Positions 1 to 60,600 of a DNA stretch of 64,000 nt are shown here, one piece after another. The DNA lies in the IMG/VR virus record IMGVR_UViG_3300032007_000002. One strand, 5' to 3'. The first letter of the stretch is position 1, and every line of letters starts with the position of its first letter. The translations under genes were made by a program, and so were the position numbers. The stretch comes from a virus. Taxonomy: Duplodnaviria > Heunggongvirae > Uroviricota > Caudoviricetes. The notes under the pieces were generated by a model that saw only the letters and a list, made by a program, of their open reading frames with translations, ran no database searches and was not told where the DNA came from.

Positions 1-192
1 CGGTGCAGTCATCGTACCCGTCGCGGCTTGTTACGTGCCAAATCTTAGACTTTTCCATAGTATCTCCTTGGTTGGTGCTCTCCCTATGTGATCGGCAGGA
101 ATGAAAAATATTTCCGGCCCGTGATTCCGGCGTCCCACGGCGCAAAAACGGGGAGGGGAACCACCCCTCCCCCAACCGGGAGATAATAAATT

Positions 193-708
193 TTATTTCC
201 TCTGCGCTTCAATGTAGGCCGCGAAAAGCTCCTTGAAGCGCTCACAGAACGCCTTTTCGTCTTCTTTGTCAACTTGGACGGGTTCAGTGCAGAACTTGTT
301 AAGGCGGGCGTCCATTTTCATGATGACCACCCCGAAAATCTTGCCATTGGTGCGGTCAAGGACGACCATGCAGAACTCCTCGCCACGTTCAAGCACGGGG
401 GCGGCGTTCCTGTCAAGCGTCTCCATCACGTCATGGTAGGTCACGTCCTTATGGAGGCACGTGGTCTCTCCGCTGATGGTGAGGGATGCGGGATGGCGTT
501 CGTTGCCCTGGTAGTAGGTCATTCTCGCCCCGTCAAAGGCCGTCTTGCCGTCATGTTCCCACTTGTAGGCCACCTTCACGCCGCCCACGGAGTGGTAGAA
601 CGGGTCGCGGGGGAGGCCAATGTCGAACATCACCACGGGCATCTTGCGATAGTTGCAGATTTGGGCGAATTTTGATCTGTCTTTGTTTGCAATGTCAAGT
701 TCAACCAT
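193..708 (-). CDS. Hypothetical early cassette protein (171 aa)
   Basis: ORF with start reset to the ATG after the cassette RBS (AAGGAGAT); followed by a hairpin. Confidence 0.8.
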   Translation of the reverse strand: MVELDIANKDRSKFAQICNYRKMPVVMFDIGLPRDPFYHSVGGVKVAYKWEHDGKTAFDGARMTYYQGNERHPASLTISGETTCLHKDVTYHDVMETLDRNAAPVLERGEEFCMVVLDRTNGKIFGVVIMKMDARLNKFCTEPVQVDKEDEKAFCERFKELFAAYIEAQRK

Positions 709-827
709 TTTCAATCTCCTTGTTGGTACTCCCCCTATGTTACGGGGCAAAAGCAAAAATTAAAGTTTCCCGTGATTCCGCCATCGGTAGTGAACAGAAA
801 AGCAAGTGCTCTCTCGAGCACCGCCCT

Positions 828-1307
828 TTACTTGTGGTTACGTCTGTTAAACATGTCCGCCACGTTATCGGCAATTTCGTTCATGAACACGCCAATGTCC
901 GTATCGTAGTGGTAGGGGCGTTTCGGCTCCACCAATTCCCAACGGCGGCAGCGGTAGCCGCGGCGGTGGCCGTTGGTCCATACGTTGCCCGTGAACTGCT
1001 GGCTGTCGGGAGGGAGGCCCTGCTCCTTACGTTCACGGGATGAGCACTCGAGGTCATCATGGATGACCACAGTGATGAGGGTCATGTTGTCATAGCTTAT
1101 GCCATCGGGGGACTTTCCCGCGGGAATATTCACGTGGATGCGGATATACGTCCCTGGGACTGCAAAGAAGTCATTGCTGTGGGTGAAAGAGAAGCCGTCC
1201 TTAATTCCGCGGGCATTGAGCAGGCGGGGGAGTTCAACGAGCACCTTACCGAGCGTTTCGTCATTGAGGACGCGGTGTTCATAACAGATGTTTTGTCCGA
1301 GTTTCAT
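828..1307 (-). CDS. Hypothetical early cassette protein (159 aa)
   Basis: ATG directly after cassette box and AAGGAGAT. Confidence 0.8.
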   Translation of the reverse strand: MKLGQNICYEHRVLNDETLGKVLVELPRLLNARGIKDGFSFTHSNDFFAVPGTYIRIHVNIPAGKSPDGISYDNMTLITVVIHDDLECSSRERKEQGLPPDSQQFTGNVWTNGHRRGYRCRRWELVEPKRPYHYDTDIGVFMNEIADNVADMFNRRNHK

Positions 1308-1445
1308 GTCGTATCTCCTTGGTTGGTATGCCTCCTATGTTACGGGGTACGCGATCCGGTCGGGACGTCCCGTGATTCCGGCGCCCGTGGAAATCCAAAA
1401 AATCGGGAGGGGAGTTACCCCCTCCCCCAACATGGGAGTGAAAAA

Positions 1446-2153
1446 TTACTTATTATTTGCTGTCATCATTGCGGCCTTCTGTTCGGGGCTGAGCATTGCC
1501 CACCATGCGTTCGGGTCCCTCTTTTCGGTCAAAGAAGAATTTTTCTGCAACATGGCGATATATTCGTTGCCCTTTACGAACTTTGCGTCAATTTCGGCTT
1601 GGTGCTTGGTAAGTTCGGCATCCAAAGACAAAATTTTCTTTTCGCAAATTTCCATGCAGTGGACGGCCGCGTCATGGGCATTGTGGAACACGATATATTG
1701 ATTATACCTGCTGCCCTTGTTGATGACTTCGCCATTCTGTGCATAGGCGGAAACGCGGTAGTGTCCCTTTTCGGAAGTGTAGGCATACCAATATACCCCG
1801 CTTTCGTCAATGTTGAGGACACGGACATCATTGTAGTAGTTGCCCACCCCGAAGACATGCGGCTTTCCATCGTTCGCATGGTCGGTAAGCCACTTTTCAA
1901 TGGTCTCCACGCTGACATCAAGGTTAAAGCTCTTGTGGCTGTTTGGCCAAAGGCCAGGGATTTCCCAATGGCGGGAAGCACCTAGATAGAACTCGGCCGA
2001 GGTAACTACATCGGCCCCGTCCTTGTCAAAATGGCACAACGCCATGGGGATGAGGGCGAGCTCCTTCGCGTCATTGCCGTAAGATTGCAGTGCGTCCTTC
2101 TTGGTTTCGTTAAGGCCGAGGGTGAAGTTCTTATAGACGTAAGTGGGTTTCAT
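1446..2153 (-). CDS. Hypothetical early cassette protein (235 aa)
   Basis: Start MKPTY after cassette RBS; the longer ORF call only reads through the repeat. Confidence 0.8.
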   Translation of the reverse strand: MKPTYVYKNFTLGLNETKKDALQSYGNDAKELALIPMALCHFDKDGADVVTSAEFYLGASRHWEIPGLWPNSHKSFNLDVSVETIEKWLTDHANDGKPHVFGVGNYYNDVRVLNIDESGVYWYAYTSEKGHYRVSAYAQNGEVINKGSRYNQYIVFHNAHDAAVHCMEICEKKILSLDAELTKHQAEIDAKFVKGNEYIAMLQKNSSLTEKRDPNAWWAMLSPEQKAAMMTANNK

Positions 2154-2308
2154 ATCGTATCTCCTTGTTGGTATGCCCCCTATGTTACGGGGGCGCTCCC
2201 TAGTCTTGCTTGTCCCGTGATTCCGTGTCATCCCCCCACTTGTTGCGGGGGTTGGTCACTATCAGCGCGGTGCCGAGGACTACGCACCCTAGACCTACCC
2301 AAAGCATG

Positions 2309-2554
2309 TCACGCCCCCCTTTCGGCCATGCGGACGGCCTTCTCAGTGAGCTTCCTGCGCTTGCTCTGTACCTGCCGAGTGCGGAGCTTTCGGCCGTTCT
2401 GCGTTTCGGCAATGCGGAGGGCACGCTGCTTCTTGGTTTCCTTTCCGGTCTTGGGGTCGATGAGGATGGTCTCCATCTTGATTTTCGGGCACTGGAATTT
2501 CGCGCGGGACTTGCCGAAGGAAAGGTGGAGGATTGTAACGTTAATCATAAGCAT
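2309..2554 (-). CDS. Small basic hypothetical protein
   Basis: Follows cassette box at 2577; K/R-rich C-terminus. Confidence 0.65.
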   Translation of the reverse strand: MLMINVTILHLSFGKSRAKFQCPKIKMETILIDPKTGKETKKQRALRIAETQNGRKLRTRQVQSKRRKLTEKAVRMAERGA

Positions 2555-2625
2555 ATCTCCTTGGTTGGTATGCCCCCTATGTTACCATCGGGGGCCATGC
2601 TGATCGGTTCGCCCGTGATTCCGCG

Positions 2626-2838
2626 TCACGGGATTTCGTAGCCGTATTGGGCCTTGACGCCCTTGCCTGCCAATGCTTCAACCGCCTTTTGCCCGTCCGC
2701 CAAGTCCATGAAGGGCGGTTCGTCACTTTGGGGCGCCTGCTCGCCATTCTTGTTGAAGAACACCCATTGGTATTCATCGGGCTTTGCGTTCGGGTTCTTT
2801 GCATATACGCAAACTTGCATTTCGGAATAGCTCTTCAT
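2626..2838 (-). CDS. Hypothetical early cassette protein (70 aa)
   Basis: ATG after cassette RBS. Confidence 0.75.
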   Translation of the reverse strand: MKSYSEMQVCVYAKNPNAKPDEYQWVFFNKNGEQAPQSDEPPFMDLADGQKAVEALAGKGVKAQYGYEIP

Positions 2839-2925
2839 AAAAATCTCCTTGTTGGTGCTCCCCCTATGTTACGGTGCAAAATCAAAAATTAAATTTTCCC
2901 GTGATTCCGGCCCGCCACGGCACGG

Positions 2926-2944
2926 AAAAGGGGCTTGCGCCCCC
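2926..2944 (-). terminator. Recurrent intrinsic terminator GGGGC-GCAA-GCCCC-TTTT closing cassettes (representative copy)
   Basis: GC stem, GNRA loop and U-tract directly after the stop codon. Near-identical copies at 4789-4807, 5317-5335, 10624-10642; variants at about 5806-5823, 8767-8785, 10172-10198, 10932-10953. Confidence 0.85.
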
Positions 2945-2947
2945 TTG

Positions 2948-3892
2948 CTATGCTTCCTCCTTCTTAAAGTTCGCCTTGCCCTGCCCCATGTGGAGCACGA
3001 GCAGGTCATCGTCAAGCGCTCGGGTCGCGGCGAGAAGTTCCGTGGTGTCCACGCCACCGCCCTGCCCGTTGAACTCAATGTTGTCGGGGATGGCGGTGAG
3101 CTTGAAGTCGCCCGTGGTGTCAATGCAGAGCTGCATGTTGAGCTCTTTGAGCTTTCGGGCGAACGGGTAGAAGAGGCTTTTCAGTATGGAAATGTTGGCC
3201 GAGTAGTCTTCCCCGAGCATATTTTCCACGCGGAGGTCCGACTGACACTTTTCAACGGCTTCAATGAGGCCGATGGCGGATTCGCGGGCATATCCCGTTG
3301 CGCAATCGGTGAAGAAGCGTCCGGTGTCCGAAGAGAAGTTCTCGTCAGACCCGCAACGGACGAGGATGTTCTTTGCGGCAACGAGGGTGCGGAGTTCTTC
3401 AACGGAAAGTTCTTTCATTCGGTTCATTTTGCTATCTCCTTTTGTTGGTGCTCCCCCTATGTGATCGGGGGCGGGTGCGGCCTGCTCGGTGGCCGTGATT
3501 CCGTGGCCGTCCTTCGGCTTGTCGCTATACTTGTGGATGAGGGCGATGAGTTCCTCGGGCGTGTCGTGGGACGTGTAAATCGGCTCCCATTCGTCCGTGC
3601 GGTAGAGCTCATAGACCGACAAGCCCGTGGCCACTTCCATTTTCCCGTCATCCACCGCGTGGCGGTAGTGCCACATTGCACAGAGCTTGTGGCCGTTGCG
3701 GGTGAAGTCTATGTAAATGTCTATTTGGTCGCTCGCTAGGCAATGGCGGGCGTCCACTTCCGTAATGTCGGGGAACGCCCCCTTGACGAGGTTCTTGTTT
3801 GCGACAAGCTGCTTGTCCACCGCGTCAATGTAGGGGTGCGCCTTGATGATGGCGTCAACCACTTCCAAATCAATCACGTTCATGTTGACCAT
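2948..3892 (-). CDS. Two cassette genes fused in frame through an internal cassette box (314 aa; internal start near 3427)
   Basis: Open frame crosses the full box at 3457-3502 (encodes GIT...PDHIGGAPTKGD); RBS and ATG at both 3892 and about 3427. Confidence 0.75.
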   Translation of the reverse strand: MVNMNVIDLEVVDAIIKAHPYIDAVDKQLVANKNLVKGAFPDITEVDARHCLASDQIDIYIDFTRNGHKLCAMWHYRHAVDDGKMEVATGLSVYELYRTDEWEPIYTSHDTPEELIALIHKYSDKPKDGHGITATEQAAPAPDHIGGAPTKGDSKMNRMKELSVEELRTLVAAKNILVRCGSDENFSSDTGRFFTDCATGYARESAIGLIEAVEKCQSDLRVENMLGEDYSANISILKSLFYPFARKLKELNMQLCIDTTGDFKLTAIPDNIEFNGQGGGVDTTELLAATRALDDDLLVLHMGQGKANFKKEEA

Positions 3893-3962
3893 GTTGTCTC
3901 CTTTGGTTGGTGCTCTCCCTATGTGATCGGGGGAAGGGAGGGAGCTGCCTCCCCCGTGATTC

Positions 3963-4205
3963 CTACGAGTTGCTCCGTCCGCGGAAGCGGTCTAGGTCGG
4001 TCTCGGCCGCATAGTCGGCCACGTAGTCAATGGCCTCCTTGTCCTCGCCAGTGAGCACGATTTCGGTCGCGTTGGGCTTTTCAAACTTCACCCTGTCAAT
4101 GTCCCCGTTGTGCTCGGGGTGCAAATTCTGAATTTTGAAATTTTCAAGGGCTTTGAGGGCGTCAAAGCAGGCGTCCTCGTCCGCGAAATGCAATGTAACT
4201 TTCAT
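3963..4205 (-). CDS. Hypothetical acidic protein (80 aa)
   Basis: ATG after cassette RBS. Confidence 0.75.
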   Translation of the reverse strand: MKVTLHFADEDACFDALKALENFKIQNLHPEHNGDIDRVKFEKPNATEIVLTGEDKEAIDYVADYAAETDLDRFRGRSNS

Positions 4206-4327
4206 TTTTCAATCTCCTTTCGGTGTCCACCCTATGTTACGGCCGGACCCGCACGCGCACGAGCGGCCCGTGATTCCCTCCCGTCACGGGTGCACAAAAG
4301 GGCACCCCATGGGGGCGCCTTCCGGTA

Positions 4328-4687
4328 TCATAGGTATGGTCTCTGCATGTCGTCTATGCGGCCATACGGGAGGAACGAGACACTTCGTCGGCGGGTCTGG
4401 TCAATCCTTACGGCCACTTCCTGTTCGCCACGGCTCAGGCGTTCCACGTATGCGTCCACCGTCACCCCGTCCTCTATTCGGAGTATGTGGTGCGAGGTCT
4501 TGGACACGGCCACGTAGCCGCCACCCTCTTCGTGGCATACCCACGAGCCGTCCTGGATGGCGTCAAACGTCTTCGGCATGATTACCACGCCCGAGCTGTC
4601 CGCCATTCGGAGTACGTCATCGCACGGGATTTCGGCCGCGAATGCGAGCATCGCGAAGATGGAAATTAAAAATAAGATTTTTTTCAA
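4328..4687 (-). CDS. Putative exported protein with signal peptide (about 119 aa, TTG start)
   Basis: MKKILFLISIFAMLAFA signal-like N-terminus after AAAGGAGA. Confidence 0.65.
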   Translation of the reverse strand: MKKILFLISIFAMLAFAAEIPCDDVLRMADSSGVVIMPKTFDAIQDGSWVCHEEGGGYVAVSKTSHHILRIEDGVTVDAYVERLSRGEQEVAVRIDQTRRRSVSFLPYGRIDDMQRPYL

Positions 4688-4812
4688 TCTGTCTCCTTTG
4701 TTGTTTGTTTCGTTTTCGGTATGCCCTCTATGTGATCGGGGAGGGCGGCGTAGACCCGCTTCCCGTGATTCCGGCGCCGGACGGCAAGAAAAAGGGGCTT
4801 GCGCCCCTTCCC

Positions 4813-5229
4813 CTAGCTGAGGGAGTCCAGCTCGTTTTTCCAGTCCTTCCACACGCGCCAGGCCTCGTCATTGAGGCGCTTGACTTCGTCTTCGGTTGCC
4901 GCGACTTCGGTGGACGTGTCGTCGACGTCGCCCGTCTTCGGGTTGTACGGCATGTTCCAGTCCACGTCAAAGTCGCATTGCATGGCGTTATTGCTATGCT
5001 GGTATGCGATTTTGGAGTTGATACGCCACGTGCCGTCCGCGTTTGGGGTGCCTGCAGGCGCCTTGTCGTACCCGTCCGACCAGCCCAGCACGATGAAGAG
5101 GCCCGTGCCCCCGTCCGTTTCGGCCACCTTCTTGTAGCAGCAGCCGCACTTCTGTTCGTTGAGCCACTTGATGGAGGAAACCAAAAATTCCAAATCAATC
5201 TTTTCAAAATCTTTTTTTGTTGTAGCCAT
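4813..5229 (-). CDS. Hypothetical acidic protein (138 aa)
   Basis: Cassette RBS upstream and terminator downstream. Confidence 0.8.
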   Translation of the reverse strand: MATTKKDFEKIDLEFLVSSIKWLNEQKCGCCYKKVAETDGGTGLFIVLGWSDGYDKAPAGTPNADGTWRINSKIAYQHSNNAMQCDFDVDWNMPYNPKTGDVDDTSTEVAATEDEVKRLNDEAWRVWKDWKNELDSLS

Positions 5230-5339
5230 GAGCTATCTCCTTGTTGGTATGCTCCCTATGTTATCGGCGGGAGCTGCATGATCTGTAAACCCGTGATTCC
5301 GTCTCCCCACGGGCCGAAAAAGGGGCTTGCGCCCCTCGG

Positions 5340-5717
5340 CTAGATTTCAGCCGGATCGAGTTCCACGATACGGAGTATGTAGGACGGGCTCGTGGCGTGG
5401 CGCCTAATGAAGGTCTTGTTCGGGGCGCTCATTTCCACCCATCCCTCGTGTTTGAGCTTTACGAGGTATTTCTTGAAGAGCGGGGCGAAGTTGAAGGCCC
5501 ACCCCATGAGCTTGTAAATCCCGTGGCGGTATGTTTCGCGGTGCCAAAGTTCGCTGAAGTAGGTGTCTTCCCACTTCTGTTCCTCTTCGGTGAGCTTGCG
5601 CTTTTCCGAATAGGCCTGCATGAGCTTGCAGAGGTTATTGTCCTTGTAATCCTCGCGCTTGGTGCTGAGGTCGTGGGAAACGAACTTGAAAACGAGTGAA
5701 AGCGGTTCAAAAGCCAT
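5340..5717 (-). CDS. Hypothetical early cassette protein (125 aa)
   Basis: Cassette RBS upstream and terminator downstream. Confidence 0.8.
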   Translation of the reverse strand: MAFEPLSLVFKFVSHDLSTKREDYKDNNLCKLMQAYSEKRKLTEEEQKWEDTYFSELWHRETYRHGIYKLMGWAFNFAPLFKKYLVKLKHEGWVEMSAPNKTFIRRHATSPSYILRIVELDPAEI

Positions 5718-5821
5718 GTTGTATCTCCTTGTTGGTACGCTCCCTATGTGACGGGCGGGAGCGATCCCGTGCAATGCCCCGTGATTCCTGCACGGGGAGG
5801 GGCGAAAAAGGGGCCACGCCC

Positions 5822-6154
5822 CTAGTCCACCTTCCTGATCGTCTCGTCGAAGCCGAGCGAGAGGGCTTCCCCCTCTTCAAGCACATGCAGAGAATACACG
5901 TGCATGGAGCCGTCAGTGTGCTGCGCGTTGAAGCTCTCCAAAGCAAGGCGATTATAGCCACGCTTGAAGCGTCCCCAGCCCTTATAGTTCGCAAAACGGA
6001 TATACCAGCCTTCATTTTCGTACTTTTCGAGGAAGCTGGCCATGCGCTTGGCCCCATTCAATCGCCCTACCACGGGCATCACTTCGCGGGTGTCGTCAGT
6101 GCCGGGCTTCGAACGCTTGATAATGATTTGACAGACTATTTTCGCTTTTGCCAT
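5822..6154 (-). CDS. Hypothetical early cassette protein (110 aa)
   Basis: Start MAKAK after cassette RBS. Confidence 0.75.
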   Translation of the reverse strand: MAKAKIVCQIIIKRSKPGTDDTREVMPVVGRLNGAKRMASFLEKYENEGWYIRFANYKGWGRFKRGYNRLALESFNAQHTDGSMHVYSLHVLEEGEALSLGFDETIRKVD

Positions 6155-6290
6155 ATCGGCCTCCCTTGTTGGTAGGCTCCCTATGTGACGGGGGGACGCC
6201 CTGCCAGGACGCCCCCCGTGATTCCGACACTCCAACCAGGGGATCGGGTCACGGCCCCGTGTCGGGAAGGCCGCCCCGTCAAAGTTCGTT

Positions 6291-6872
6291 CTACGGGTCC
6301 CCCATCTTGTAGATGAGGCCCATTCTTGCCCGCTGCTTGACGCGGGTCGCAAATTTCGGGTTGTTCTCCAATGTGTTGAGGTTGTACCATGCGCGGACCT
6401 GGGGCACGTTGGCGAAGTCGCCCGGGCCGAACCCCTCGCCGAAGTCCAGGGCCTCCATCCAGGCGCCCACGGAAGTCGCCACGATGACATCGGGACACGA
6501 CCTGGCCATGAACCGGAACACGTAGCCGTTATGGCTGCCCCAGCCGTAGGCGCACACCCAGCGGGCCGAGCGGCCCTTCTTGGCGTATGGCTGCCACATG
6601 GTGAGGAACGAGAAGCCCAGGTCGGGGCAACGCTCCCCGAACTCCACGCCCATCTCTTCGGCCGTGTAGTTGAAATACTTCCCGCTTTTCAGTCTGTATT
6701 CACAGACTGCGGTCCCCGAGACCTCGATTGCGGTGCCGCCCTTGATTTCGTAGGCGAACGGCTCCCCGTGCGAGGAATACGTATAGTCGTATCGGGGGTT
6801 GGTCGGTGTCCTGTACTCCTGCGATGCGGCAATGACCACCGACAGCAATGCCAAAATAAAACTTTTTTTCAT
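6291..6872 (-). CDS. Putative exported protein with signal peptide (193 aa)
   Basis: MKKSFILALLSVVIAA N-terminus; preceded by a degenerate box and a TTTTGCTATATTTC promoter at 6952-6965. Confidence 0.7.
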   Translation of the reverse strand: MKKSFILALLSVVIAASQEYRTPTNPRYDYTYSSHGEPFAYEIKGGTAIEVSGTAVCEYRLKSGKYFNYTAEEMGVEFGERCPDLGFSFLTMWQPYAKKGRSARWVCAYGWGSHNGYVFRFMARSCPDVIVATSVGAWMEALDFGEGFGPGDFANVPQVRAWYNLNTLENNPKFATRVKQRARMGLIYKMGDP

Positions 6873-7068
6873 GATTGAGACCATTGTCCCTGCTCCTGCT
6901 GGTATGTTCTTGCGTTGGGCGGCCTTCTAGCGGCTACCGTGATTCCAGCAGGAAATATAGCAAAATTTCGATTAGCCCGTGATGCGGATCATTTTGTCTT
7001 CCTTGTCGATGTCTCGTTATCGGGACGGGTATCGGGACACATTGTCCCGAGCCTCCCGAGGTGCCGCC

Positions 7069-7239
7069 CTATCGGGACAGCGCCTGCCTCCAATACCACA
7101 CCACGAACCCGCTGCCGTGTGGCGTCACCACCGCGCGGTGGTTCTTCCATGACGGGTGGGCCTTGTTGTAACCGTCCGCGAAGGCGTTCGCCCCCGCTTC
7201 CGTGTCCTTGAAGACGAACGTCTTCACCAGCTTGCTCAT
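7069..7239 (-). CDS. Small hypothetical protein (56 aa)
   Basis: Start overlaps the stop of the upstream gene. Confidence 0.55.
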   Translation of the reverse strand: MSKLVKTFVFKDTEAGANAFADGYNKAHPSWKNHRAVVTPHGSGFVVWYWRQALSR

Positions 7240-7433
7240 GTCAGCATCCCCCACGCCCCGTTGAACACTTTTGTCATGCCGTAGCAGGTCGCCTTCACGA
7301 TGGAGCAGGCGAAGCTGGCCGTGGAGCTTACGGCGTTGGAGAGGTTGCCGGAGCAGTTGTAGTTTCCGCTAAACGCGCCCACCGAGAAGAAGATGGCGAG
7401 AGCGATGATGAGGACTTTAACCCAAGTTTTCAT
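7236..7433 (-). CDS. Small membrane/exported protein (65 aa)
   Basis: Hydrophobic N-terminus after cassette RBS. Confidence 0.7.
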   Translation of the reverse strand: MKTWVKVLIIALAIFFSVGAFSGNYNCSGNLSNAVSSTASFACSIVKATCYGMTKVFNGAWGMLT

Positions 7434-7503
7434 TTCAATCTCCTTGTTGGTACTCCTCCTATGTTACGGGGGAGAGTGAAGGGCCCCGAAAGGCCCGTGA
7501 TTC

Positions 7504-7887
7504 CTATGCGGCGGAGGCCCTCTTCGCGACGTAGGCGTTCCATTCCTCGGCATACTTCTGACGGCTCTCCATGCAGGTGAGAAGCGTGCCCTTGCCGTTA
7601 AACCAGTTCTCGTTTACCATGCCCGCATAGTCCGTGAGTGTCTTCTTGTCTTTCGGCTTGTTCATGACAGCAGCGAGTTCGTTCGTGCCGAAGCAGAGCG
7701 TTTTGCCGTGGGCTTCCGCATTGACGAACGGCCCCCATCCATCATTGATTTCATAGGCTTTTTCTTCCGCTTCCTTTTCCGAAGCCATTTCCACCTCGTA
7801 GTGACGGACGAGGTTGAGGGGCTTCTCTGCATCTTCCCTCATGGTATTTAAAATCTTGTTTGCCTGTTCCTGTTCTGCGATACTCAT
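7504..7887 (-). CDS. Hypothetical early cassette protein (127 aa)
   Basis: ATG after cassette RBS. Confidence 0.8.
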   Translation of the reverse strand: MSIAEQEQANKILNTMREDAEKPLNLVRHYEVEMASEKEAEEKAYEINDGWGPFVNAEAHGKTLCFGTNELAAVMNKPKDKKTLTDYAGMVNENWFNGKGTLLTCMESRQKYAEEWNAYVAKRASAA

Positions 7888-7989
7888 GGTTTAATCTCCC
7901 TTGTTGGTACGCTCCCTATGTTACAGGGAGGAAGGGCCGCCCTTTAAAGCCCGTGATTCCGGTGCAGGGAAGGACAAAAAGGGATGGCC

Positions 7990-8679
7990 CTATGGGCCGA
8001 TCACCTTTGCCTTTGCTACATAGTCTATGTTCGTTGCGGGCGGCATGAACGACTTTACAATTTCCCGCTTGCCAGGGCCTTCGTTCAGCAATTTTAAATA
8101 ATTTTCCGCCTCGGGTTTTGACGCGAACGGGGGCGAAACAATATAATCTTTCCCGCTATATTCTTCTTCTCCCGTTTCGTTGGTAACTACTTCGGCCTGC
8201 ACGAAAAACATGTCTTTGATGGGGCGGCACTTATGTTCGTGGATTTCCCCGAAGGTCATGCGGATAAGGTCGCGGCTGTTGTGGGTTACGGGGTTCTCGT
8301 GTTCGTCAAAGTGGAGACCGCTGATATTATCCCCCGCATAGATACTGAGACTCCAGCCGTCCTTCTTGTAGTATTCGAGGAACACGCGGGCCTCTTCAAA
8401 TCGGGACGCGAGCGAGGCGAGGGAGGCGAGCGGTTCGGGAATGGGCGGGCGCTGGTTGAGCCACCCGAGTTTTCTGTTTTCCACCATGCGGTCGGCTTCC
8501 CGCTTGAAGCTGTCGAGCACGTTGAAATACTTGTCGCCACCGTAGCGGGCATGCAGGTAGTCAACGAACTTCTTGACGTCTTCCTTGAAGGCGGTGTTTC
8601 GGGCGGGGTTGAAATGCTGGGTAAAGTCTTCTTTCGGGTTGTTCGGGTCGGTCGGGCCGAGGTTCAAGGTCGCTATCAT
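7990..8679 (-). CDS. Hypothetical early cassette protein (229 aa)
   Basis: ATG after cassette RBS. Confidence 0.8.
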   Translation of the reverse strand: MIATLNLGPTDPNNPKEDFTQHFNPARNTAFKEDVKKFVDYLHARYGGDKYFNVLDSFKREADRMVENRKLGWLNQRPPIPEPLASLASLASRFEEARVFLEYYKKDGWSLSIYAGDNISGLHFDEHENPVTHNSRDLIRMTFGEIHEHKCRPIKDMFFVQAEVVTNETGEEEYSGKDYIVSPPFASKPEAENYLKLLNEGPGKREIVKSFMPPATNIDYVAKAKVIGP

Positions 8680-8784
8680 GTTCAATCTCCTTGTTGGTAT
8701 GCTCCCTATGTGATCGGGGAGGGAGGACCCCGAGGAACCCCCGTGATTCCGTCACGGGAGGGGAGGAAAAAGGGGTCTCCGCCC

Positions 8785-9009
8785 CTAGCACCTGATACAT
8801 TCGTCAAAGTGCAGGCGGAGGCCGTTCACGACCACGTAGGGGCGGCCCGCTTTGGTGGAGCGGACGCGGACGCGGTGGACGCTCTTTTTGGAGCACCACG
8901 CACCCGACACGCACACACAGATTTCGTCATTCAGTTCCTTGACTTCGCAACCGCCCAATGCGGACCAATAGCCAACGGACTTTTTAGCAAGGATTTCGGC
9001 ACGAGACAT
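8785..9009 (-). CDS. Small hypothetical phage protein (74 aa)
   Basis: ORF followed by terminator; about 110 nt from box at 9122. Confidence 0.65.
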   Translation of the reverse strand: MSRAEILAKKSVGYWSALGGCEVKELNDEICVCVSGAWCSKKSVHRVRVRSTKAGRPYVVVNGLRLHFDECIRC

Positions 9010-9239
9010 AAGCACCCCGATTTTAAAAATTTTTGCACGTCCGGCCGAGGGGGTAGTCTCCCGATTAAGTTCGGGACTGACATTTAGCCCCTCGGCCTTC
9101 CGTGTCGTTTCGACAAGCTCCCTATGTGATCGGCAGGAAAATAAAATTTATTTTCCCCGTGATTCCGCCAGCCCAGAGGAAAAGAAAAAACACGGGGCTT
9201 TCGCCCCGTGGGGATTGCGTTGTTCTCCTTTTTGGCGGT

Positions 9240-9683
9240 TTAGGCCGCTTTTGCGGCCTCGTTGCGTACCTGTCTCATTACGTAGCTCTTAATCTTGGAG
9301 ACGGCCTTAAAGAGGGCGTTCGCTTCGATTTCACGGGAGTGCGAGCGGTTGCGCTTACGCTGAGAGGGCGGGCAGCAACGCTCAAGGATCTCCTCATCGT
9401 AGATGATGAAGTTGCCGCCCATGCTCGCCTCGCTGCAGAGGGACTTGACTTTCGGGAGGGCGTCCTTCCCCCAAATCTTGTTAAGGGTGTAGTTGTTGCC
9501 GTCCACATGGTTGAGGAGGTGTCCCAAATTTAGGGCGGTAATTTCGCTGTCGCCGTTCACGTCGGAGTAGTCGCCCGAAATGATCGGGTCAAGCATGTCG
9601 ATGGCGTAGGCGATAACGCCACGGCCGAACTGGCTCTTTGCGGTTTCGTTCTTGATTTCGTTGTAAAGGTCTTTAATGTTCAT
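9240..9683 (-). CDS. Hypothetical early cassette protein (147 aa)
   Basis: ATG after cassette RBS; terminator at about 9180-9212. Confidence 0.8.
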   Translation of the reverse strand: MNIKDLYNEIKNETAKSQFGRGVIAYAIDMLDPIISGDYSDVNGDSEITALNLGHLLNHVDGNNYTLNKIWGKDALPKVKSLCSEASMGGNFIIYDEEILERCCPPSQRKRNRSHSREIEANALFKAVSKIKSYVMRQVRNEAAKAA

Positions 9684-9757
9684 GGTTAATCTCCCTTGTT
9701 GGTAATCACTCTATGTTACGGGCATTGAACCCCCTTCGGGGTTCCCCCGTGATTCCG

Positions 9758-10009
9758 TCAATACTCGAACTCTATGTCCCCGTCCTTGAAGATGTCCTGC
9801 GGGATGGGTTCCCCGTCCGTGGTGGTCTCGTTTTCGAGGCACGCCTGCGGTATGTAGGTGTTGCCCCCGAATTGTACCATCCCATGAGCTAGGGCGTCTT
9901 TAAGCGGTTCCGTGTCGCCCGCTTTGAGCCTGCGGAGCTCGTCAATACTCAGGTTCACGCTCGCCCCGAGACGGAACCAAACAGCTACCCTCTTATTTCC
10001 ATCGGCCAT
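9758..10009 (-). CDS. Hypothetical protein (83 aa)
   Basis: GGGGGCG RBS-like sequence and coding-like composition. Confidence 0.65.
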   Translation of the reverse strand: MADGNKRVAVWFRLGASVNLSIDELRRLKAGDTEPLKDALAHGMVQFGGNTYIPQACLENETTTDGEPIPQDIFKDGDIEFEY

Positions 10010-10197
10010 AATCGCCCCCTATCTTAGGTTATTGGCCACTAGCGTGGCGAGTACCATGAATGATAATAAAAACGCCCACATAGTGACCTCCATCGGTTGA
10101 CAGGCTCCCTATGTGATCGGGGAGGGAGATCCCCAGCACCACGCCCGTGATTCCGCCCGCCCACGGGAGCGAAAAGAGGGGGCTTGCGCCCGCCCTC

Positions 10198-10533
10198 TTA
10201 CATGGTCTTATAGACAATTTGGCCGCCCTCAACGTCAATCACGACACTATCGGGGCGGAACCCTAATATTTCGTCTAGGCTCTTAAATCCGCCCTCTTCG
10301 TCGGGGCGGCTCGCCTTATAGACCTCTTCGGCCGTCATCTTCTTTTCGCACTCCCGCCAATCATTGCGGAACGTCAGGCCGTGGATGGGGGCAAAGTCTT
10401 TGCCATCTTCGGACATGGCTTCGACTTCGCCCACGGCATTATCCCAAATTGCGGGGTGGCTCATGCCCGTATCTTCGCACTTGTAAATGGCGTTGGGCAT
10501 GGGGGAACGTGTATCTACTGCAACGAGAAACAT
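10198..10533 (-). CDS. Hypothetical early cassette protein (111 aa)
   Basis: Start MFLVA after cassette RBS. Confidence 0.75.
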   Translation of the reverse strand: MFLVAVDTRSPMPNAIYKCEDTGMSHPAIWDNAVGEVEAMSEDGKDFAPIHGLTFRNDWRECEKKMTAEEVYKASRPDEEGGFKSLDEILGFRPDSVVIDVEGGQIVYKTM

Positions 10534-10646
10534 TGTCAATCTCCTATCGGTTGGTGCTCTCCCTATGTGATCGGGGAGGGAGATCCCCCGCGTGCGCCCG
10601 TGATTCCGACGGCCCACGGCGCGAAAAAGGGGCTTGCGCCCCTCGT

Positions 10647-10841
10647 TTACGGCCTCAGATAGCGGTTCAATGCAACAATGTTCTTGAACGGGAAACAGAT
10701 TTTGCTTTTCGGGTCAAGGACGGCCGTTATGGAGCCATCCGCGCAAAACGTTAAATCCCCGTTTGGATAGTTTTTCAGAAATTTCTTGCGGATGAACTTT
10801 TTCATGTTGGTGGAATAGGCTTCAATAGTCTTGTTGGGCAT
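10647..10841 (-). CDS. Small basic hypothetical protein (64 aa)
   Basis: Cassette RBS upstream and terminator downstream. Confidence 0.7.
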   Translation of the reverse strand: MPNKTIEAYSTNMKKFIRKKFLKNYPNGDLTFCADGSITAVLDPKSKICFPFKNIVALNRYLRP

Positions 10842-10999
10842 AAGCAATCTCCTTTCGGTTGGTAGTCTCCCTATGTGATCGGGGAGGGAGCTTCCCCGTA
10901 TACGCCCGTGATTCCGCCATCACACGGGCGGAAAAGAGGGCTTTCGCCCTCTTCCCCGTGCTGGTTGATGTTCCCCCTATGTGACGAGTAAAAAGGCGG

Positions 11000-11260
11000 T
11001 TAAGCCTCTTTAATGAGTTGCCACTCAAACCGCATTAAACGCACGTTTAACTCTCGGCTGATTTTCCAGCCCACGAGCATAACGCGGGCGAGCATGCACT
11101 CATAATAGACCTGTCCTGTCCGCATATCTACATATATGCGGTTCAAAAACGCCCCGCCGGCGTGTTTGGCACGCTCCCATGCGGCTCGGGCGAGCTGCTT
11201 CATGTAGAGCATGTTGGCTTTAATGCACTGCATCATGGTGTTAATCGGCTTCAAGATCAT
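11000..11260 (-). CDS. Hypothetical early cassette protein (86 aa)
   Basis: ATG after cassette RBS. Confidence 0.7.
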   Translation of the reverse strand: MILKPINTMMQCIKANMLYMKQLARAAWERAKHAGGAFLNRIYVDMRTGQVYYECMLARVMLVGWKISRELNVRLMRFEWQLIKEA

Positions 11261-11398
11261 AAGTATCTCCCTTGTTGGTGCTCTCCCTATGTTACGCGTA
11301 TGCGTGCGGGAGATCCCTGTCCCGTGATTCCGGCAATGTTTCATGTGAAACAATGGCCGACCGTGGGTTCGGAGTAGCACCCACGGGCGACCGCTCTG

Positions 11399-11533
11399 TT
11401 AGTCTTCGCTGTCGCCGAACAATGCCGTAAACGCGTCATCTAATTCGCGTTCAAGCGAGTTCTGATAGACGATAAAGCCCTCATCTTCAAGTTCAGCGGT
11501 GACTTCTTTGCGAGCGTCTTCTTTTTGTGCCAT
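11399..11533 (-). CDS. Acidic 44-aa peptide, first coding cassette of the array
   Basis: Hand translation MAQKEDARKEVTAELEDEGFIVYQNSLERELDDAFTALFGDSED after AAGGAGAT; below the ORF-track length cut-off. Confidence 0.7.
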   Translation of the reverse strand: MAQKEDARKEVTAELEDEGFIVYQNSLERELDDAFTALFGDSED

Positions 11534-11577
11534 GGTAGCATCTCCTTGTTGGTGCTCTCCCTATGTGAAGGGCGGAT

Positions 11578-11912
11578 TTGCCGTTAGGGTCTTCCCCCGT
11601 GATTCCGTGCAGGGGAGTTAAAAGGGAAGCCCCTAGCATTGGACCTGGCAAGCTATCTAGTTCGCGACCTAGTCAGCTAATGCGTGTCCCTCAGCTAGGG
11701 GCTTTTGCGGATGGCAGGCGAGGGGATTTCAGCGACAACAAGAGGACGTTTATGTCCTGCCGTCAGTGGCTTGTCGTGTTCCTCGGCTTAACGCTGCCAT
11801 CCATTGGCTCCGCAGGTTCCTATCCTGCTGCCGAACGTAACCACCCTATGTGATCGGCCTGTCCGTTTGCCGTTAGGACGCCGTGATTCCCCCAGGTCGA
11901 TTTGCCGTTAGG
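11578..11912. repeat. TTTGCCGTTAGG direct repeat x3
   Basis: Copies at about 11578, 11866 and 11901; two sit inside or next to cassette boxes. Confidence 0.7.
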
Positions 11913-12240
11913 GGGTATCCTATATGTAATCGCACCACTGGTTAGCGCCTGCCCCCGCACCCCCTCCCACAACACGTTCCTAGAATATCAGCGCTCCGCG
12001 CCACCTCCCCAGGGCGTCTCTGTAAACTTCCGGTTACAAAAGTTAAAAGAAAAAACGTGGGTACGGAAAAATAGAAAAAGCAAAACGTACCCCCACCCCC
12101 TCCGGCGCAGCGCGAGTCGGTAGGGGGGTCTGGGAGTATTTTGTAACATTTTTGTAAGGAACCACCTCCCCGCCTTGTTTTGAAAGCGTACAGGGGGTGT
12201 TTCCGAAAAATTTCTGGGGGTGGGGGGTATCTGGCCGCCC

Positions 12241-12507
12241 CTAGCGGGTCTTTCCAAGGAGTTCGTTCATCCTGGCGACTATGCTGTCCATCGTATCGAG
12301 GCCGTCGAACGATCCGTCGGGGACGGTTATGTTGAAGTCGTTCTCGACGTCGTATTCGAGGAAGAGGCGGTCCGTGTCGTCGAACATGGTGACGTCGGCG
12401 AGACTCTGGCCGGGCTGTTCCAGGCACTCCCTGGTTGTGCCGAAGCGGTCTTCCAGCCAATCCAGGAGCCATTCCCTGGGGTCTTCTATTCCGCAGTGTT
12501 CTGACAT
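12241..12507 (-). CDS. Acyl-carrier-protein-like protein lacking the phosphopantetheine Ser (88 aa)
   Basis: DDTDRLFLEYDVENDFNITVPD aligns by eye to ACP [22 protein letters not shown] with S replaced by D; GGAGG RBS. Confidence 0.65.
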   Translation of the reverse strand: MSEHCGIEDPREWLLDWLEDRFGTTRECLEQPGQSLADVTMFDDTDRLFLEYDVENDFNITVPDGSFDGLDTMDSIVARMNELLGKTR

Positions 12508-32620: not shown

Positions 32621-32640
32621 GACCGAAATATAGCAAAAAG

Positions 32641-46648: not shown

Positions 46649-47002
46649 TTACTCCTTGCCTGTCTGCACAGGCTTAATATCAGCGCATTTTGCCTCCGGC
46701 ATCTGGCCGAACGGCGTAGGTCCCGTTACGAGGGTGCTGGAGAATCCCAGGATGGACGGGAAGAACTCATGGTCGTCATCGTCCTCGATGATGTTCCTGC
46801 ACGCCCTGATGGCCTGGCCCATCGACGAGTAGTGTTTCGCCGTTGCCGGGTTGTCGCTGCATTCGCAGAAGCGCTCATTCTGGAGCCATCCGCGGTTGAG
46901 CATCTTGCCCCGGCACTTCCACTGGATGAACACGAGAAAGCAGTCGAAGGTCATGCCCGGTTCCGGGAACTTGCGTTCCTCGTATGGGAGTGCCTTAGCC
47001 AT
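46649..47002 (-). CDS. Hypothetical protein (117 aa)
   Basis: Operon packing. Confidence 0.6.
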   Translation of the reverse strand: MAKALPYEERKFPEPGMTFDCFLVFIQWKCRGKMLNRGWLQNERFCECSDNPATAKHYSSMGQAIRACRNIIEDDDDHEFFPSILGFSSTLVTGPTPFGQMPEAKCADIKPVQTGKE

Positions 47003-60183: not shown

Positions 60184-60600
60184 TTACACGAACTGAATTT
60201 CCAGACGCTTGCCCATACATTCTGCGATGCGCTTTAGCATCTTAACGCTTAAATTTGCCTTGCGACTTTCAAGCCGCTGATACGCCTGTTTTGTCATGCC
60301 CATTTTATGGGCTATAGTTGCTTGGGGGACTTTTCCGCGGGCAACTGCCACCTGCAATGCCACAGCAAGTACGGGATCTACTTCTATACGGTATAAACCC
60401 TTGCGTTCGTTTGCTTTCGTCTTGCTGACGGGCAGCGGTTTGCCGTCAAAGACGTATTCAAGGGTAAGCTCCATAGCCTCCCGGGCTTCCTTAAGCGCCT
60501 CTTCGAGAGTGTCTCCCTGCGTAAAGCACCCGTCAATATCAGGGAACGATACTGAATAGCCGCCGTCCTTTTCCTTGGTTAGTTTCGCAGTATAGTTCAT
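60184..60600 (-). CDS. hicB: HicB-family antitoxin with C-terminal XRE HTH (138 aa), no hicA adjacent
   Basis: GGYSVSFPDIDGCFTQGDTLEEALKEAREA signature; HTH QATIAHKMGMTKQAYQRLE. Confidence 0.88.
   Translation of the reverse strand: MNYTAKLTKEKDGGYSVSFPDIDGCFTQGDTLEEALKEAREAMELTLEYVFDGKPLPVSKTKANERKGLYRIEVDPVLAVALQVAVARGKVPQATIAHKMGMTKQAYQRLESRKANLSVKMLKRIAECMGKRLEIQFV

Follow-up and report, generated by a model that had tools for sequence, protein, structure and literature searches.

A bipartite unit, most likely a promoter, precedes nearly every gene in a ~64-kb arm of an uncultivated rumen phage

One end of a 64,000-nt stretch of phage DNA (here called the window; IMG/VR record IMGVR_UViG_3300032007_000002) carries a long series of small genes preceded by the same pair of short conserved boxes, which raises the question of what this pair does. 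The DNA belongs to a giant, uncultivated rumen phage. As judged from the sequence, almost all genes along a ~64-kb arm of its genome are headed by the same two-part signal, which is most likely a promoter.

A bipartite unit with fixed spacing

Each unit consists of GGAATCACGG (box 1), 29 to 30 free bases, T(A/C)ACATAGGG(A/G)G (box 2), and a common leader that contains a ribosome site and runs to the ATG. Searching the window for GGAATCACGG followed by ACATA 28 to 31 nt further on retrieved 25 units between 85 and 11890, all on the minus (coding) strand, versus 0.00 in shuffled sequence. Counted from the first base of box 1, ACATA begins 39 nt further on in 18 of the 25 units and 40 nt further on in the other 7; in 22 units it lay 23 to 46 nt (mostly 31 to 35 nt) 5' of the start codon. 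Between ACATA and the start codon, the units share the leader (T/C)A(C/T)CAAC(C)AAGGAGAT.

In rumen metagenome contigs, 406 distinct units were found at 56 loci. When 342 units were anchored on box 2 alone, box 1 was exact in 321 (94%) and had one mismatch in 13 more, with offsets between the boxes of 39 (252 units), 40 (57 units), and 38 (24 units); the same anchoring gave only 5 matches on the opposite strand. The spacing of 39 ± 1 holds in 95% of units and does not depend on the spacer sequence. At orthologous junctions the boxes are invariant, whereas the spacer (~80% identical) is not conserved better than the genes (~77%). The count of 25 against none expected, the 406 units, the near-exact box 1, the fixed offset, and the invariant boxes together rule out chance and indicate strong selection. 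A unit always lies on the coding strand between the end of the previous gene and the next ribosome site, which follows ACATA by ≤40 nt in 97% of units, and 77% of cassettes hold a single gene. The array described in the initial annotation is real and larger than claimed: its roughly 26 copies correspond to 25 full copies and 1 partial copy, its boxes 28 to 30 bp apart to 29 to 30 variable bases, and its rule of one box per small gene mostly applies. To our knowledge, no characterized phage or bacterial promoter has two invariant elements with 29 to 30 free bases between them, which counts against a promoter role.

Units of the window and the arm beyond it

The portion of the arm inside the window (1 to 11912, minus strand) comprises the 25 units with their genes and continues past position 1. 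It begins with an operator-like copy of the 11-mer CCTAACGGCAA (11902 to 11912) just upstream of the first box 1; the spacers of the first two units also contain this 11-mer, here and in several lineages, so that the copy ahead of box 1 is the third. Unit 1 (11847 to 11890) is followed by neither a ribosome site nor an ORF. Behind it lies an ORF-less stretch of 236 nt (11611 to 11846) that ends in a hairpin and T-run and is a candidate structured RNA, with a folding z of -4.0 and no match to an Rfam family. The whole stretch is 97 to 99% identical in the related loci L060 and L033, and its 3' 85 nt are 77 to 78% identical in distant loci. Unit 2 (11562 to 11606) precedes a gene of 44 aa (11533 to 11399).

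A single gene likewise follows unit 3 (11288 to 11331; gene 11260 to 11000, 86 aa), unit 4 (10872 to 10915; 10841 to 10647, 64 aa), unit 5 (10564 to 10607; 10533 to 10198, 111 aa), unit 7 (9712 to 9756; 9683 to 9240, 147 aa), unit 10 (7917 to 7960; 7887 to 7504, 127 aa), unit 14 (5745 to 5788; 5717 to 5340, 125 aa), unit 15 (5257 to 5300; 5229 to 4813, 138 aa), unit 17 (4233 to 4277; 4205 to 3963, 80 aa), unit 21 (2578 to 2622; 2554 to 2309, 81 aa), unit 23 (1336 to 1379; 1307 to 828, 159 aa), unit 24 (736 to 779; 708 to 193, 171 aa), and unit 25 (85 to 128), whose gene begins at 57 and is cut off by the end of the window. Between units 3 and 4, an orphan partial copy (about 10961 to 10988) retains box 2 and a leader remnant without box 1 or a gene. 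The leader is variant in unit 6 (10110 to 10154), where a short hydrophobic ORF precedes the gene (10009 to 9758, 83 aa), and in unit 8 (9123 to 9166), whose gene starts at either 9083 or 9009 and ends at 8785; it is long in unit 16 (4729 to 4772; gene from 4687 or 4651 to 4328). Unit 11 (7460 to 7504) heads two genes (7433 to 7236, 65 aa; 7239 to 7069, 56 aa). The ORF behind unit 18 (3920 to 3963) starts at 3892 and runs without a stop through unit 19 (3458 to 3502) to 2948 (314 aa), and unit 19, in frame within it, has its own start at 3427 (159 aa).

The initial annotation had placed the array at 61 to 11890; it is present there but is not confined to that interval. According to a near-identical metagenome record, which has 79 exact copies at 5001 to 62441 and none reversed, the arm is ~64 to 65 kb long, runs in one direction, and contains at least 86 copies of the unit. 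The window covers only its first ~12 kb (about one-fifth), and ~52 kb more lies past the window's left end. At the far end of the arm, three tandem ORF-less units stand in front of iterons. The units that lack an ORF (unit 1 and the three terminal ones) and the 11-mer within spacers fit a transcription signal at the DNA level better than an mRNA leader element.

Two motif classes and the putative reader

Sigma-70-type hexamer pairs occur at chance level at 1 to 12500 (6 found versus 6.0 expected). As stated earlier, the boxes do not have sigma-70 geometry. The box was also said to differ from the motif used elsewhere in the window, and the two are indeed separated: the box motif is absent from the other 52 kb, where a class-2 motif, TTGCTATATTTC, has ~17 minus-strand copies (12 to 64 kb), with 1 inside the array (6952 to 6963). 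The latter belongs to unit 12 (6903 to 6963; gene 6884 to 6291, 197 aa), in which only 5 nt separate it from a downstream box 1 that is exact and is followed by a decayed box 2. Since box 1 is exact there despite the decayed box 2 and the abutting class-2 motif, it may have a separate role, for example, that of an operator or of the 5' end of an RNA.

Early genes of phage P23-45 carry conserved motifs for the phage's own polymerases, and its later genes are transcribed by host polymerase modified by early phage proteins (PMC10770324). The division between box arm and class-2 region follows the same logic and was counted in favor of the promoter reading. In contrast to T7 and P23-45, however, the ~130 kb examined yielded neither an RNA polymerase nor a sigma factor nor any obvious DNA-binding activator, which counts against that reading; the search included 50 window ORFs, with a DxDxD scan of 19 larger ones, and Pfam lists and a DxDxD scan over the ~65-kb arm and ~8 kb beyond.

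The T7 early promoters are used by the host polymerase, and initiation at T7 promoters takes place at TATAGGGAGA, which is G-rich after an ATA tract. Like the phage polymerase promoters of T7 and P23-45, the units are present in many near-identical copies limited to one gene set, with a second promoter type serving other genes of the same genome, and box 2 resembles T7 in its putative G-rich initiation region after the ATA tract. However, the T7 and P23-45 promoters are single contiguous blocks of ~15 to 25 bp, whereas here a second invariant block lies four helical turns upstream. The middle and late promoters of P23-45 are used by the host polymerase (PMC10770324).

Terminators, spacer hairpins, and the proposed module

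A strict scan over all loci detected a hairpin with a T-run before box 1 in 36% of 379 units versus 2% inside ORFs, and by eye a GC hairpin with a T-run was seen upstream of ~15 of the 25 window units; terminators often accompany units, as first described. The T-run ends 13 to 16 nt before box 1. Upstream terminators and spacer hairpins are complementary, with spacer hairpins of -13.3 kcal/mol in units without an upstream terminator versus -9.3 kcal/mol in units with one (p = 7e-11). Genes behind such terminators require a promoter of their own, and nothing else in that interval is conserved besides the boxes. On the other side, with a canonical terminator at only 36% of units, many genes could be cotranscribed.

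The N4 early promoters are DNA hairpin promoters of the virion polymerase, with a defined stem of 5 to 7 bp and a 3-nt loop in a fixed place. In the present units, too, conserved sequence surrounds a segment that can form a hairpin shortly before the presumed start, but these hairpins have no constant size or register, and AT-rich spacers form weak ones or none.

The upstream terminator or spacer hairpin and the lack of a sigma-70 excess point to a composite terminator/promoter/leader module that is PeSL-like but bipartite and not of the sigma-70 type. We consider it reasonably probable that such modules, at least 86 in number, split the ~64-kb arm into small transcription units, are read by dedicated machinery, and serve as homology patches for shuffling. 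The first part of the module would be an insulator, either the intrinsic terminator 13 to 16 nt upstream of box 1 or the GC hairpin in the spacer. The second would be a bipartite promoter, with the starts of box 1 and box 2 held 39 ± 1 bp apart, and the third a common leader with a strong ribosome site. Transcription would start in or just after the ATA/GGG of box 2, with box 1, about four helical turns upstream, acting as a second recognition element. The genes would presumably be expressed early, and the reader may be a phage-encoded, possibly virion-delivered, RNA polymerase or, alternatively, the host polymerase redirected by a phage factor at box 1. RNA-library contigs of two studies both end at 7462, inside the ACATA/GGG of unit 11, and another spans 153 to 738, from a terminator to the ACATA of unit 24; as these are assembled contigs that may include DNA and in which breaks are favored at repeats, their ends are a weak hint of a transcription start at box 2.

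Alternatively, box 2 alone (~20 conserved bases ending in ATAGGG) may be the promoter, with box 1 and the hairpin forming a separate signal for the preceding transcript or for regulation, for example, a sequence-specific terminator or pause site recognized by the same polymerase or an operator for a phage regulator. Box 2 is similar to CACTATAGGGAGA, the region of initiation in T7-group promoters, the hairpins are stronger where a canonical terminator is missing, box 1 of unit 12 is exact beside its class-2 promoter, and the arm ends with the three gene-less units, at a place where strong termination is plausible. In addition, termination sites of the P23-45 virion polymerase carry a conserved 26-nt motif (PMC10770324). 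We regard this division of function as unlikely, since a separate signal would not need a spacing kept in 95% of units, unit 1 has a complete box 1 although no box-class gene lies upstream of it, no U-tract follows the spacer hairpin, and the hairpins show no sense-strand G-U preference.

It is also rather improbable that the unit acts at the RNA level, as a 5'-untranslated module of long RNAs that is cleaved or bound by a protein or nuclease to yield stable and efficiently translated messages for single genes, in the way that RNase III sites are cleaved in the early RNA of T7. In favor of an RNA element, the spacers fold at -11.8 kcal/mol versus -8.2 for shuffles and -10.0 to -10.5 for two-unit chimeras, the end of box 1 pairs with the flank of box 2 (a CGGG/CCCG clamp), 64% of units lack a canonical terminator, RNA-library contigs cross several units, and the class-2 promoter of unit 12 would start transcription right at box 1. 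However, no column-wise compensatory covariation was found, the antisense strand folds equally well or better and there is no excess of sense-strand G-U pairs, the Rfam families, including ribozymes, give no match at E values up to 1, a terminator stands just before 36% of units, and some units have no ribosome site or ORF.

Cassette exchange among relatives

Related loci that are 85 to 95% identical differ in cassette order, with whole cassettes inserted, deleted, replaced, or moved. The cassettes of unit 9 (8707 to 8750; gene 8679 to 7990, 229 aa) and unit 20 (2865 to 2908; 2838 to 2626, 70 aa) are missing in L060, and other cassettes occupy the places of unit 13 (6182 to 6225; 6154 to 5822, 110 aa) in L060 and L064 and of unit 22 (2181 to 2224; 2153 to 1446, 235 aa) in L064. 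Two indels resolve to crossovers in the leader, each at a different point. Two well-supported joints in RNA-library contigs, 1300/2147 (which skips the cassette of unit 22) and 10536/10845, omit exactly one cassette each at the leader/start-codon junction. Similarity blocks begin (59% of 5' ends) and stop (71% of 3' ends) mostly at -10 to +85 of a box 1, an interval estimated at about one-fifth of the array (~95 nt per ~500-nt unit). Cassette crossovers fall in box 2 and the leader, and the invariant stretch of ~45 nt from box 2 through the leader would be the homology patch for single-gene exchange. Shuffling had been proposed at the outset, with identical order in relatives set beforehand as evidence against it; the order is not identical, and the junctions lie inside the conserved unit.

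The suggested analogy with PeSLs holds for architecture and shuffling. PeSLs of the T4-type phages RB49/phi1, PST/T4, and nt-1/KVP40 are composites of ~100 bp containing a promoter, a GGGG...CCCC stem-loop, a ribosome site, and an ATG; they flank single ORFan genes in hyperplastic regions, where close relatives have gained, lost, or exchanged cassettes through crossovers that lie between the downstream box and the ATG (PMC2839356, PMC4122927). The stem-loop either precedes the promoter or separates its two boxes (PMC2839356). The rumen phage units share the composite motif, the insulator upstream of or inside the promoter, the single-gene cassettes, and the crossovers before the ATG. They differ in that the promoter is not sigma-70-like and has two near-invariant elements with 29 to 30 free bases between them, that the sequence is much more strongly conserved (94% of units have an exact copy of the 10-nt box 1), that the array is larger (at least 86 units, uninterrupted and all on one strand of the 64-kb arm), and that it is found in a lineage of uncultivated huge rumen phages.

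Cassette-wise mosaicism, a long one-directional array of small, uncharacterized genes, and a recurring site whose ends are conserved and whose center varies and can fold also recall integron arrays (attC), but it is very improbable that the boxes are site-specific recombinase targets for cassette capture or movement, with expression driven from elsewhere, since the boxes have the same orientation and are not inverted as attC core sites are, the unit lies 5' of each gene with a ribosome site, the two leader crossovers and two contig joints fit homologous exchange, box 1 has only 10 nt and is not the main point of similarity breaks, and no integrase or recombinase was found beside the array, either within the window or farther along the arm.

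Cargo genes

The early regions of SPO1 and T7/T3 use host sigma-A or sigma-70 promoters. Like the SPO1 host-takeover module and the T7/T3 early regions, the arm groups small, mostly uncharacterized genes in one direction, with terminators and putative promoters recurring along it; those regions have tens of genes, whereas the arm has more than a hundred. The cargo had been proposed to be a pool of host-takeover or antidefense genes. Almost all of it is uncharacterized, in support of that proposal (Pfam gave no match for ~94% of the 115 cargo families), but counter-defense-like genes are few. These lie further along the arm and include a NADAR protein and an S-AdoMet lyase, the latter as in T3 (gene 0.3 type).

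Anatomy and conservation of the bipartite units

The small genes in the first part of the window (1-11.9 kb) are all on the minus strand, and each has the 10-mer GGAATCACGG (box 1) upstream. On that strand, box 1 is followed by a spacer of 29 to 30 copy-specific bases, a C-rich run, a second conserved block with the consensus T(A/C)ACATAGGG(A/G)G (box 2), a common leader, (T/C)A(C/T)CAAC(C)AAGGAGAT, and, 4 to 7 bases further on, the start codon. The boxes with their spacer and leader are called a unit here, and a unit with its gene or genes is called a cassette; the units are numbered from 11890 downward. The combination of box 1, 28 to 31 nt, and ACATA occurs 25 times in the window, between 85 and 11890 and on the minus strand only, and was absent from shuffled sequence. 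The start-to-start distance is 39 nt in 18 of the 25 copies and 40 nt in the other 7. A 26th, partial copy on the minus strand (about 10961-10988) consists of box 2 and a leader remnant, has neither box 1 nor a gene, and sits between the stop codon of gene 11260-11000 and the terminator of that gene; it is probably the scar of a past exchange. The initial annotation, which had described about 26 bipartite boxes with a spacing of 28 to 30 bp, is confirmed with 25 full copies and this partial one. The two boxes share a direct core, (A)TCAC, and are not complementary. One ORF, starting at 3892 on the minus strand, has no stop before the next gene and continues in frame through the complete unit at 3502-3458 into that gene (2948-3892, 314 amino acids [aa]); related contigs also call a single gene there.

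In total, 406 distinct units were collected from all loci. For an unbiased test of box 1, units were anchored on box 2 alone, which gave 342 distinct anchors. Exact GGAATCACGG was found 38 to 40 nt upstream in 321 of them and with one mismatch in 13 more, and only 5 box 2 anchors were on the opposite strand. The conserved block of box 2 is about 20 nt long and ends in ATAGGG(A/G)G, with conservation running from the C-tract through the G at +9 (97%) and then at A13 and C15 up to the ribosome site. At orthologous junctions the boxes are unchanged, whereas the spacers, about 80% identical, are not better preserved than the genes (about 77%). GGCGCC is present in a third of the spacers, mostly 23 to 25 nt from the box 1 start; some 13% of the spacers are AT-rich. 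Ten invariant bases at a distance fixed to within 1 bp, in phages whose genes are only 70 to 95% identical, point to a highly specific reader, i.e., a polymerase or factor that would recognize the units. The architecture of the units and their conservation were observed directly, as was the mosaicism described below.

Extent of the arm and its relatives

A near-identical metagenome record, Ga0256407_10000819 (70 kb), was found by exact-protein look-up and walked stepwise. Its merged sequence carries 79 exact copies of box 1 on one strand (5001-62441 in that record) and none on the opposite strand; 76 of the 79 are in full bipartite form, with a median spacing of 650 nt. Four further upstream units are present in the window only, and three tandem units lie just past the set (positions 8680, 8758, and 8833 of locus L211, from the same phage lineage). 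The arm is therefore about 64 kb long, runs in one direction, and counts at least 86 units; its first fifth is what the window contains.

A motif scan of metagenome contigs revealed many rumen contigs with multiple copies. In the 473-kb contig JAEEGK010000007.1 the motif is confined to 109.6-149.7 kb, where the fetched loci contain 54 exact box 1 copies. A second contig, of 48.9 kb, is made up of units over nearly its whole length, and units occupy the first 21.6 kb of an 80-kb contig. In one variant contig (L200:17560-20516), the units stop after about 17 kb and are followed by an AT-rich block encoding a 649-aa unknown protein and, on the opposite strand, an IS1595-family transposase. The GenBank phage collection gave no match to DNA 1-12000 or to a 1,016-aa protein; in IMG/VR, the pattern scan gave one chance match and the search with the 1,016-aa protein none. 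Single chance matches, with no clue to the host, were the only ones among the matches listed for GTDB genomes. A literature search for the 10-mer of box 1 returned only unrelated primer sequences, and CRISPR spacers of a neighboring array had no match to the boxes.

The class-2 motif and gene-less units

The genes of the window are divided between the box class and a second class marked by TTGCTATATTTC. This class-2 motif dominates the other 52 kb, with about 17 minus-strand copies, and occurs once in the array (6952-6963), in keeping with the earlier statement that the box motif differs from the promoter of the remaining window. It is also found, together with an uncalled cysteine-rich ORF, in an AT-rich insertion in the arm (about 53.6-54.9 kb of Ga0256407_10000819; L210:11300-12550), which lies between tRNA-Met and tRNA-Glu genes and is soon followed by a tRNA-Arg gene.

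The single class-2 copy in the array (minus strand) belongs to unit 12, where an exact box 1 (6937-6946) follows it after 5 nt. The gene of this unit encodes a 197-aa protein with a signal-peptide-like N-terminus, and its box 2 and leader are degenerate. The juxtaposition is kept in relatives that are only 69% identical, where the gap is 7 nt.

The 11-mer CCTAACGGCAA occurs in three exact minus-strand copies (11578-11588, 11867-11877, and 11902-11912), with 0.9 expected in the window. The first two units each have a copy in their spacer, and the third copy is just upstream of the first box 1; the 11-mer recurs in unit spacers of four related loci (L033, L060, L037, and L039), including the first units of other lineages. 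Such placement within spacers is as expected of an operator set in a promoter, and CCTAACGGCAA resembles an operator that controls entry into the arm.

Behind unit 1 (11890-11847) lie 236 nt (11611-11846, minus strand) that have neither a ribosome site nor an ORF and end in a hairpin and T-run. The predicted fold of this stretch has an energy of -97 kcal/mol (z = -4.0) and pairs its 5' end with its 3' end, and the 3' 85 nt are conserved at 77 to 78% in distant relatives; the stretch matched no Rfam family and is a candidate noncoding RNA. At the far end of the arm, about 53 kb to the left of the window start, the three tandem units are 75 to 78 nt apart and have no ORF (L211:8680-9520). Next come three 20-nt iterons that end in TATCAACAC, additional pairs of repeats, and some 600 nt of noncoding DNA, after which a class-2 promoter opens the following block of genes. 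This region may serve as a replication origin activated by transcription or as the terminator zone of the arm.

Proposed promoter function of the units

The unit is always on the coding strand, between the end of the previous gene and the next ribosome site, which follows ACATA by no more than 40 nt in 375 of 386 units. Among 400 complete cassettes, 77% hold a single gene (median, 146 aa). Of 379 units, 36% have a hairpin with a T-run in the 70 nt before box 1, compared with 2% inside ORFs, and the T-run of this putative terminator ends 13 to 16 nt before box 1. A gene whose unit is preceded by a terminator needs a promoter of its own, and between terminator and ribosome site the boxes are the only conserved sequence. 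The reading as a promoter module also draws on the stronger spacer hairpins of units that have no such terminator, on the units that lack a coding leader, on the operator-like 11-mer, and on the division of the window's genes between two motif classes. We infer that terminator, promoter, and leader together form a PeSL-like composite module, the promoter being of a type with no known matching geometry. The scale on which this lineage of huge rumen phages uses the module is exceptional.

A sigma-70-family promoter, including the ECF and sigma-28 types, has elements 15 to 19 bp apart and was rejected, since the blocks are 29 to 30 bp apart and nothing is conserved at the -35/-10 distance. Sigma-70-type hexamer pairs in the array stretch are at the chance level (6 found versus 6.0 expected), and the initial annotation was right to set the boxes apart from sigma-70 geometry. 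GGAAT is similar to an ECF -35 element and CCGAT(A/C)A to a sigma-28 -10 element, and no conservation is seen at the corresponding distance.

The two boxes could also have split functions, box 1 with the hairpin being a separate terminator, pause site, or operator and box 2 alone the promoter. In unit 12 and in relatives 69% identical to it, an exact box 1 stands beside the class-2 promoter despite the decay of box 2, a gene-less triple unit closes the arm, and spacer hairpins are stronger where an upstream terminator is absent (-13.3 versus -9.3 kcal/mol, p = 7e-11), all of which would suit such a division. However, the spacing of the boxes is held to ±1 bp, and box 1 is already complete at the very first unit, which argues against it. 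Alternatively, the unit could act at the RNA level as a processing or stability element, as suggested by the spacers, which fold better than shuffles, and by a CGGG/CCCG clamp in the units. Against this, the spacer hairpins show no column covariation, the sense-strand (G-U) preference expected of an RNA hairpin was not found, terminators stand ahead of a third of the units, and Rfam, ribozymes included, gave no match at E values up to 1.

Two other hairpins were considered and rejected. A CCGTG hairpin ahead of box 1 is common among the window units, but across all 406 units it is present in only 45, and some control 5-mers are at least as common. The other hairpin, which would enclose T(A/C)ACATA and run from the C-tract to GGGAG, has a small complementarity excess (4.66 versus 4.21 bp) and no column covariation.

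Comparison with known phage promoters

In T4-type PeSLs the GGGG...CCCC stem-loop precedes the promoter or is placed between the two promoter boxes (PMC2839356), the same arrangement as the compensation between terminator and spacer hairpins seen here. In PeSLs this stem-loop, often GGGG...CCCC, serves as a terminator or attenuator, and the hairpins here, upstream or in the spacer, may have that role. In both systems the motif closes with a ribosome site and start codon, both flank ORFan genes in a hyperplastic region, and both show cassette indels and replacements in close relatives with crossovers inside the motif. The PeSL analogy drawn earlier holds in the last three respects; the units differ in promoter type, since PeSLs carry a sigma-70-consensus promoter (-35/-10 boxes 16 to 18 bp apart with an AT-rich upstream region), which the units do not match. 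T7-group promoters are one contiguous block of about 23 bp (-17 to +6) with the start at GGG; box 2, about 20 nt long and ending in ATAGGG(A/G)G, is similar to such a block, and a second invariant block is located 29 to 30 nt upstream of it. The promoter hairpin of N4 type has a fixed size and position (5- to 7-bp stem and 3-nt loop) and conserved bases, in contrast to the spacer stems here, which lack column covariation and vary in register and length, and to the sometimes AT-rich spacers.

Proposed transcription start and candidate reader

Transcription would start at the GGG following ATA at the end of box 2, an end that resembles the T7-group initiation region and the YRTA cores of other phage-type polymerases. 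With this start, box 1 would cover about -44 to -34, which fits no sigma-70, ECF, sigma-28, or sigma-54 promoter geometry. Candidates for the reader are a large phage polymerase that recognizes two elements and the host polymerase with a factor bound near -40. Four metatranscriptome runs contained contigs 90 to 99% identical to the arm, in which uncovered bins carry no meaning. RNA-library contigs from two studies both end at 7462, inside ACATA/GGG, and another extends from 153 (a terminator) to 738, again within ACATA; these ends are only a hint, because assembled contigs break at repeats, may contain DNA, and show neither strand nor ends.

Pfam and PHROGs searches of 50 window ORFs, almost all Pfam-less, revealed no polymerase, sigma factor, or clear activator, and a scan of the 19 larger window ORFs for the DxDxD motif was negative. 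The walk past the window, about 73 kb in all, covered the arm (about 65 kb) and the called genes of the 8 kb beyond and gave no polymerase, sigma factor, or clear activator by Pfam or DxDxD. T7-like polymerase (PF00940) was found neither in the 50 window ORFs nor in the called genes of that walk. In phage P23-45, conserved motifs mark the genes of a virion-borne and a second phage polymerase, and later genes are transcribed by the host enzyme modified by early phage proteins (PMC10770324). By analogy, it is plausible that the reader is encoded elsewhere, among virion genes.

We infer promoter activity, its timing, and a reader. A fuller picture, possible and on balance rather doubtful, is the following. 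The boxes would be the promoter of an undescribed phage transcription system, with a noncanonical, probably virion-delivered polymerase or a polymerase plus specificity factor recognizing a pair of invariant elements separated by four helical turns, perhaps with an extruded hairpin between them. This system would drive a 64-kb early arm that has over 85 promoters and over 120 orphan genes, and the same module would be a gene-exchange seam and fire into a putative replication origin at the arm end. If the boxes are promoters for dedicated machinery, this huge rumen phage lineage has a transcription specificity unlike any characterized one. The 406 natural variants already tell which bases are important, so that a search for the reader is directly testable.

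Cassette exchange

The 400 cassette proteins fall into 118 families, with almost no paralogues within a contig. Loci 85 to 95% identical to the window have a collinear backbone and differ by single cassettes. Genes 2838-2626 and 8679-7990 are absent from locus L060, gene 6154-5822 is replaced in L060 and in locus L064, and gene 2153-1446 is replaced in L064 (all minus strand); in more distant loci, several cassette families are at different places. RNA-library contigs of other animals omit exactly one cassette each (joints 1300/2147 and 10536/10845), and in one contig a cassette between 5796 and 6144 is replaced by 301 other letters. Cassette order is thus not identical among relatives, single cassettes being inserted, deleted, replaced, and moved, as expected of the shuffling proposed in the initial annotation.

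The interval from -10 to +85 of box 1, estimated at about a fifth of the array (about 95 nt per unit of about 500 nt), contains 59% of the 5' ends and 71% of the 3' ends of similarity blocks. In the two indels that were resolved, the crossovers are in the leader between box 2 and ATG, the zone of PeSL mini-circle crossovers, between the -10 box and ATG (PMC2839356). The principle of PeSLs, a regulatory module that is also a recombination seam, is extended to a distant phage group and a different promoter type. The unit could instead be an integron-like recombination site; however, integron attC sites have inverted core sites and lie 3' of the cassette ORF, whereas the units have a direct core with both boxes in the same orientation, lie 5' of the gene, and carry the ribosome site of the next gene. 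In addition, integrons have an adjacent integrase and recombine at a single fixed base; here the two crossovers, the only junctions resolved, are at different points, there is no recombinase nearby, and no integrase was found in the window or arm.

Cargo genes

No Pfam family was assigned to any of the 20 window cassette proteins tested, and only 7 families were matched among 115 family representatives, including SpoVG, an EcoRI-type methylase, FGase, a GmrSD N-domain, HNH, and a weak match to the DnaJ zinc finger. PHROGs added little, and Atlas look-ups of two cargo proteins gave no usable result. In gene 708-193, the listed differences between window and contig are spaced at multiples of three, which fits a real coding sequence under selection. 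Farther along the arm are genes for an S-AdoMet lyase, RadC, an FtsK-like ATPase, and a NADAR protein, as well as three tRNAs.

As a whole, the arm amounts to a very large library of single-gene cassettes with clean limits, comprising at least 118 families, about 94% of which have no Pfam match, and the earlier description of the cargo as largely unknown genes stands. That the cargo consists of host-takeover or anti-defense genes is a guess from two or three recognizable genes. The few recognizable members that look counterdefense-like, the S-AdoMet lyase and NADAR, and the exchange of cassettes among phages make the arm a ready source of candidate host-takeover or anti-defense genes.

In the rest of the window (12-64 kb), nearly all tested ORFs likewise lack a Pfam family, apart from a tRNA nucleotidyltransferase-like gene (31352-32830), an AstE/AspA-like gene (46995-48128), a HicB-HTH gene (60184-60666), a TnpB/IS605 OrfB gene (61938-63329), and a weak Tad3-like match (36709-37788).
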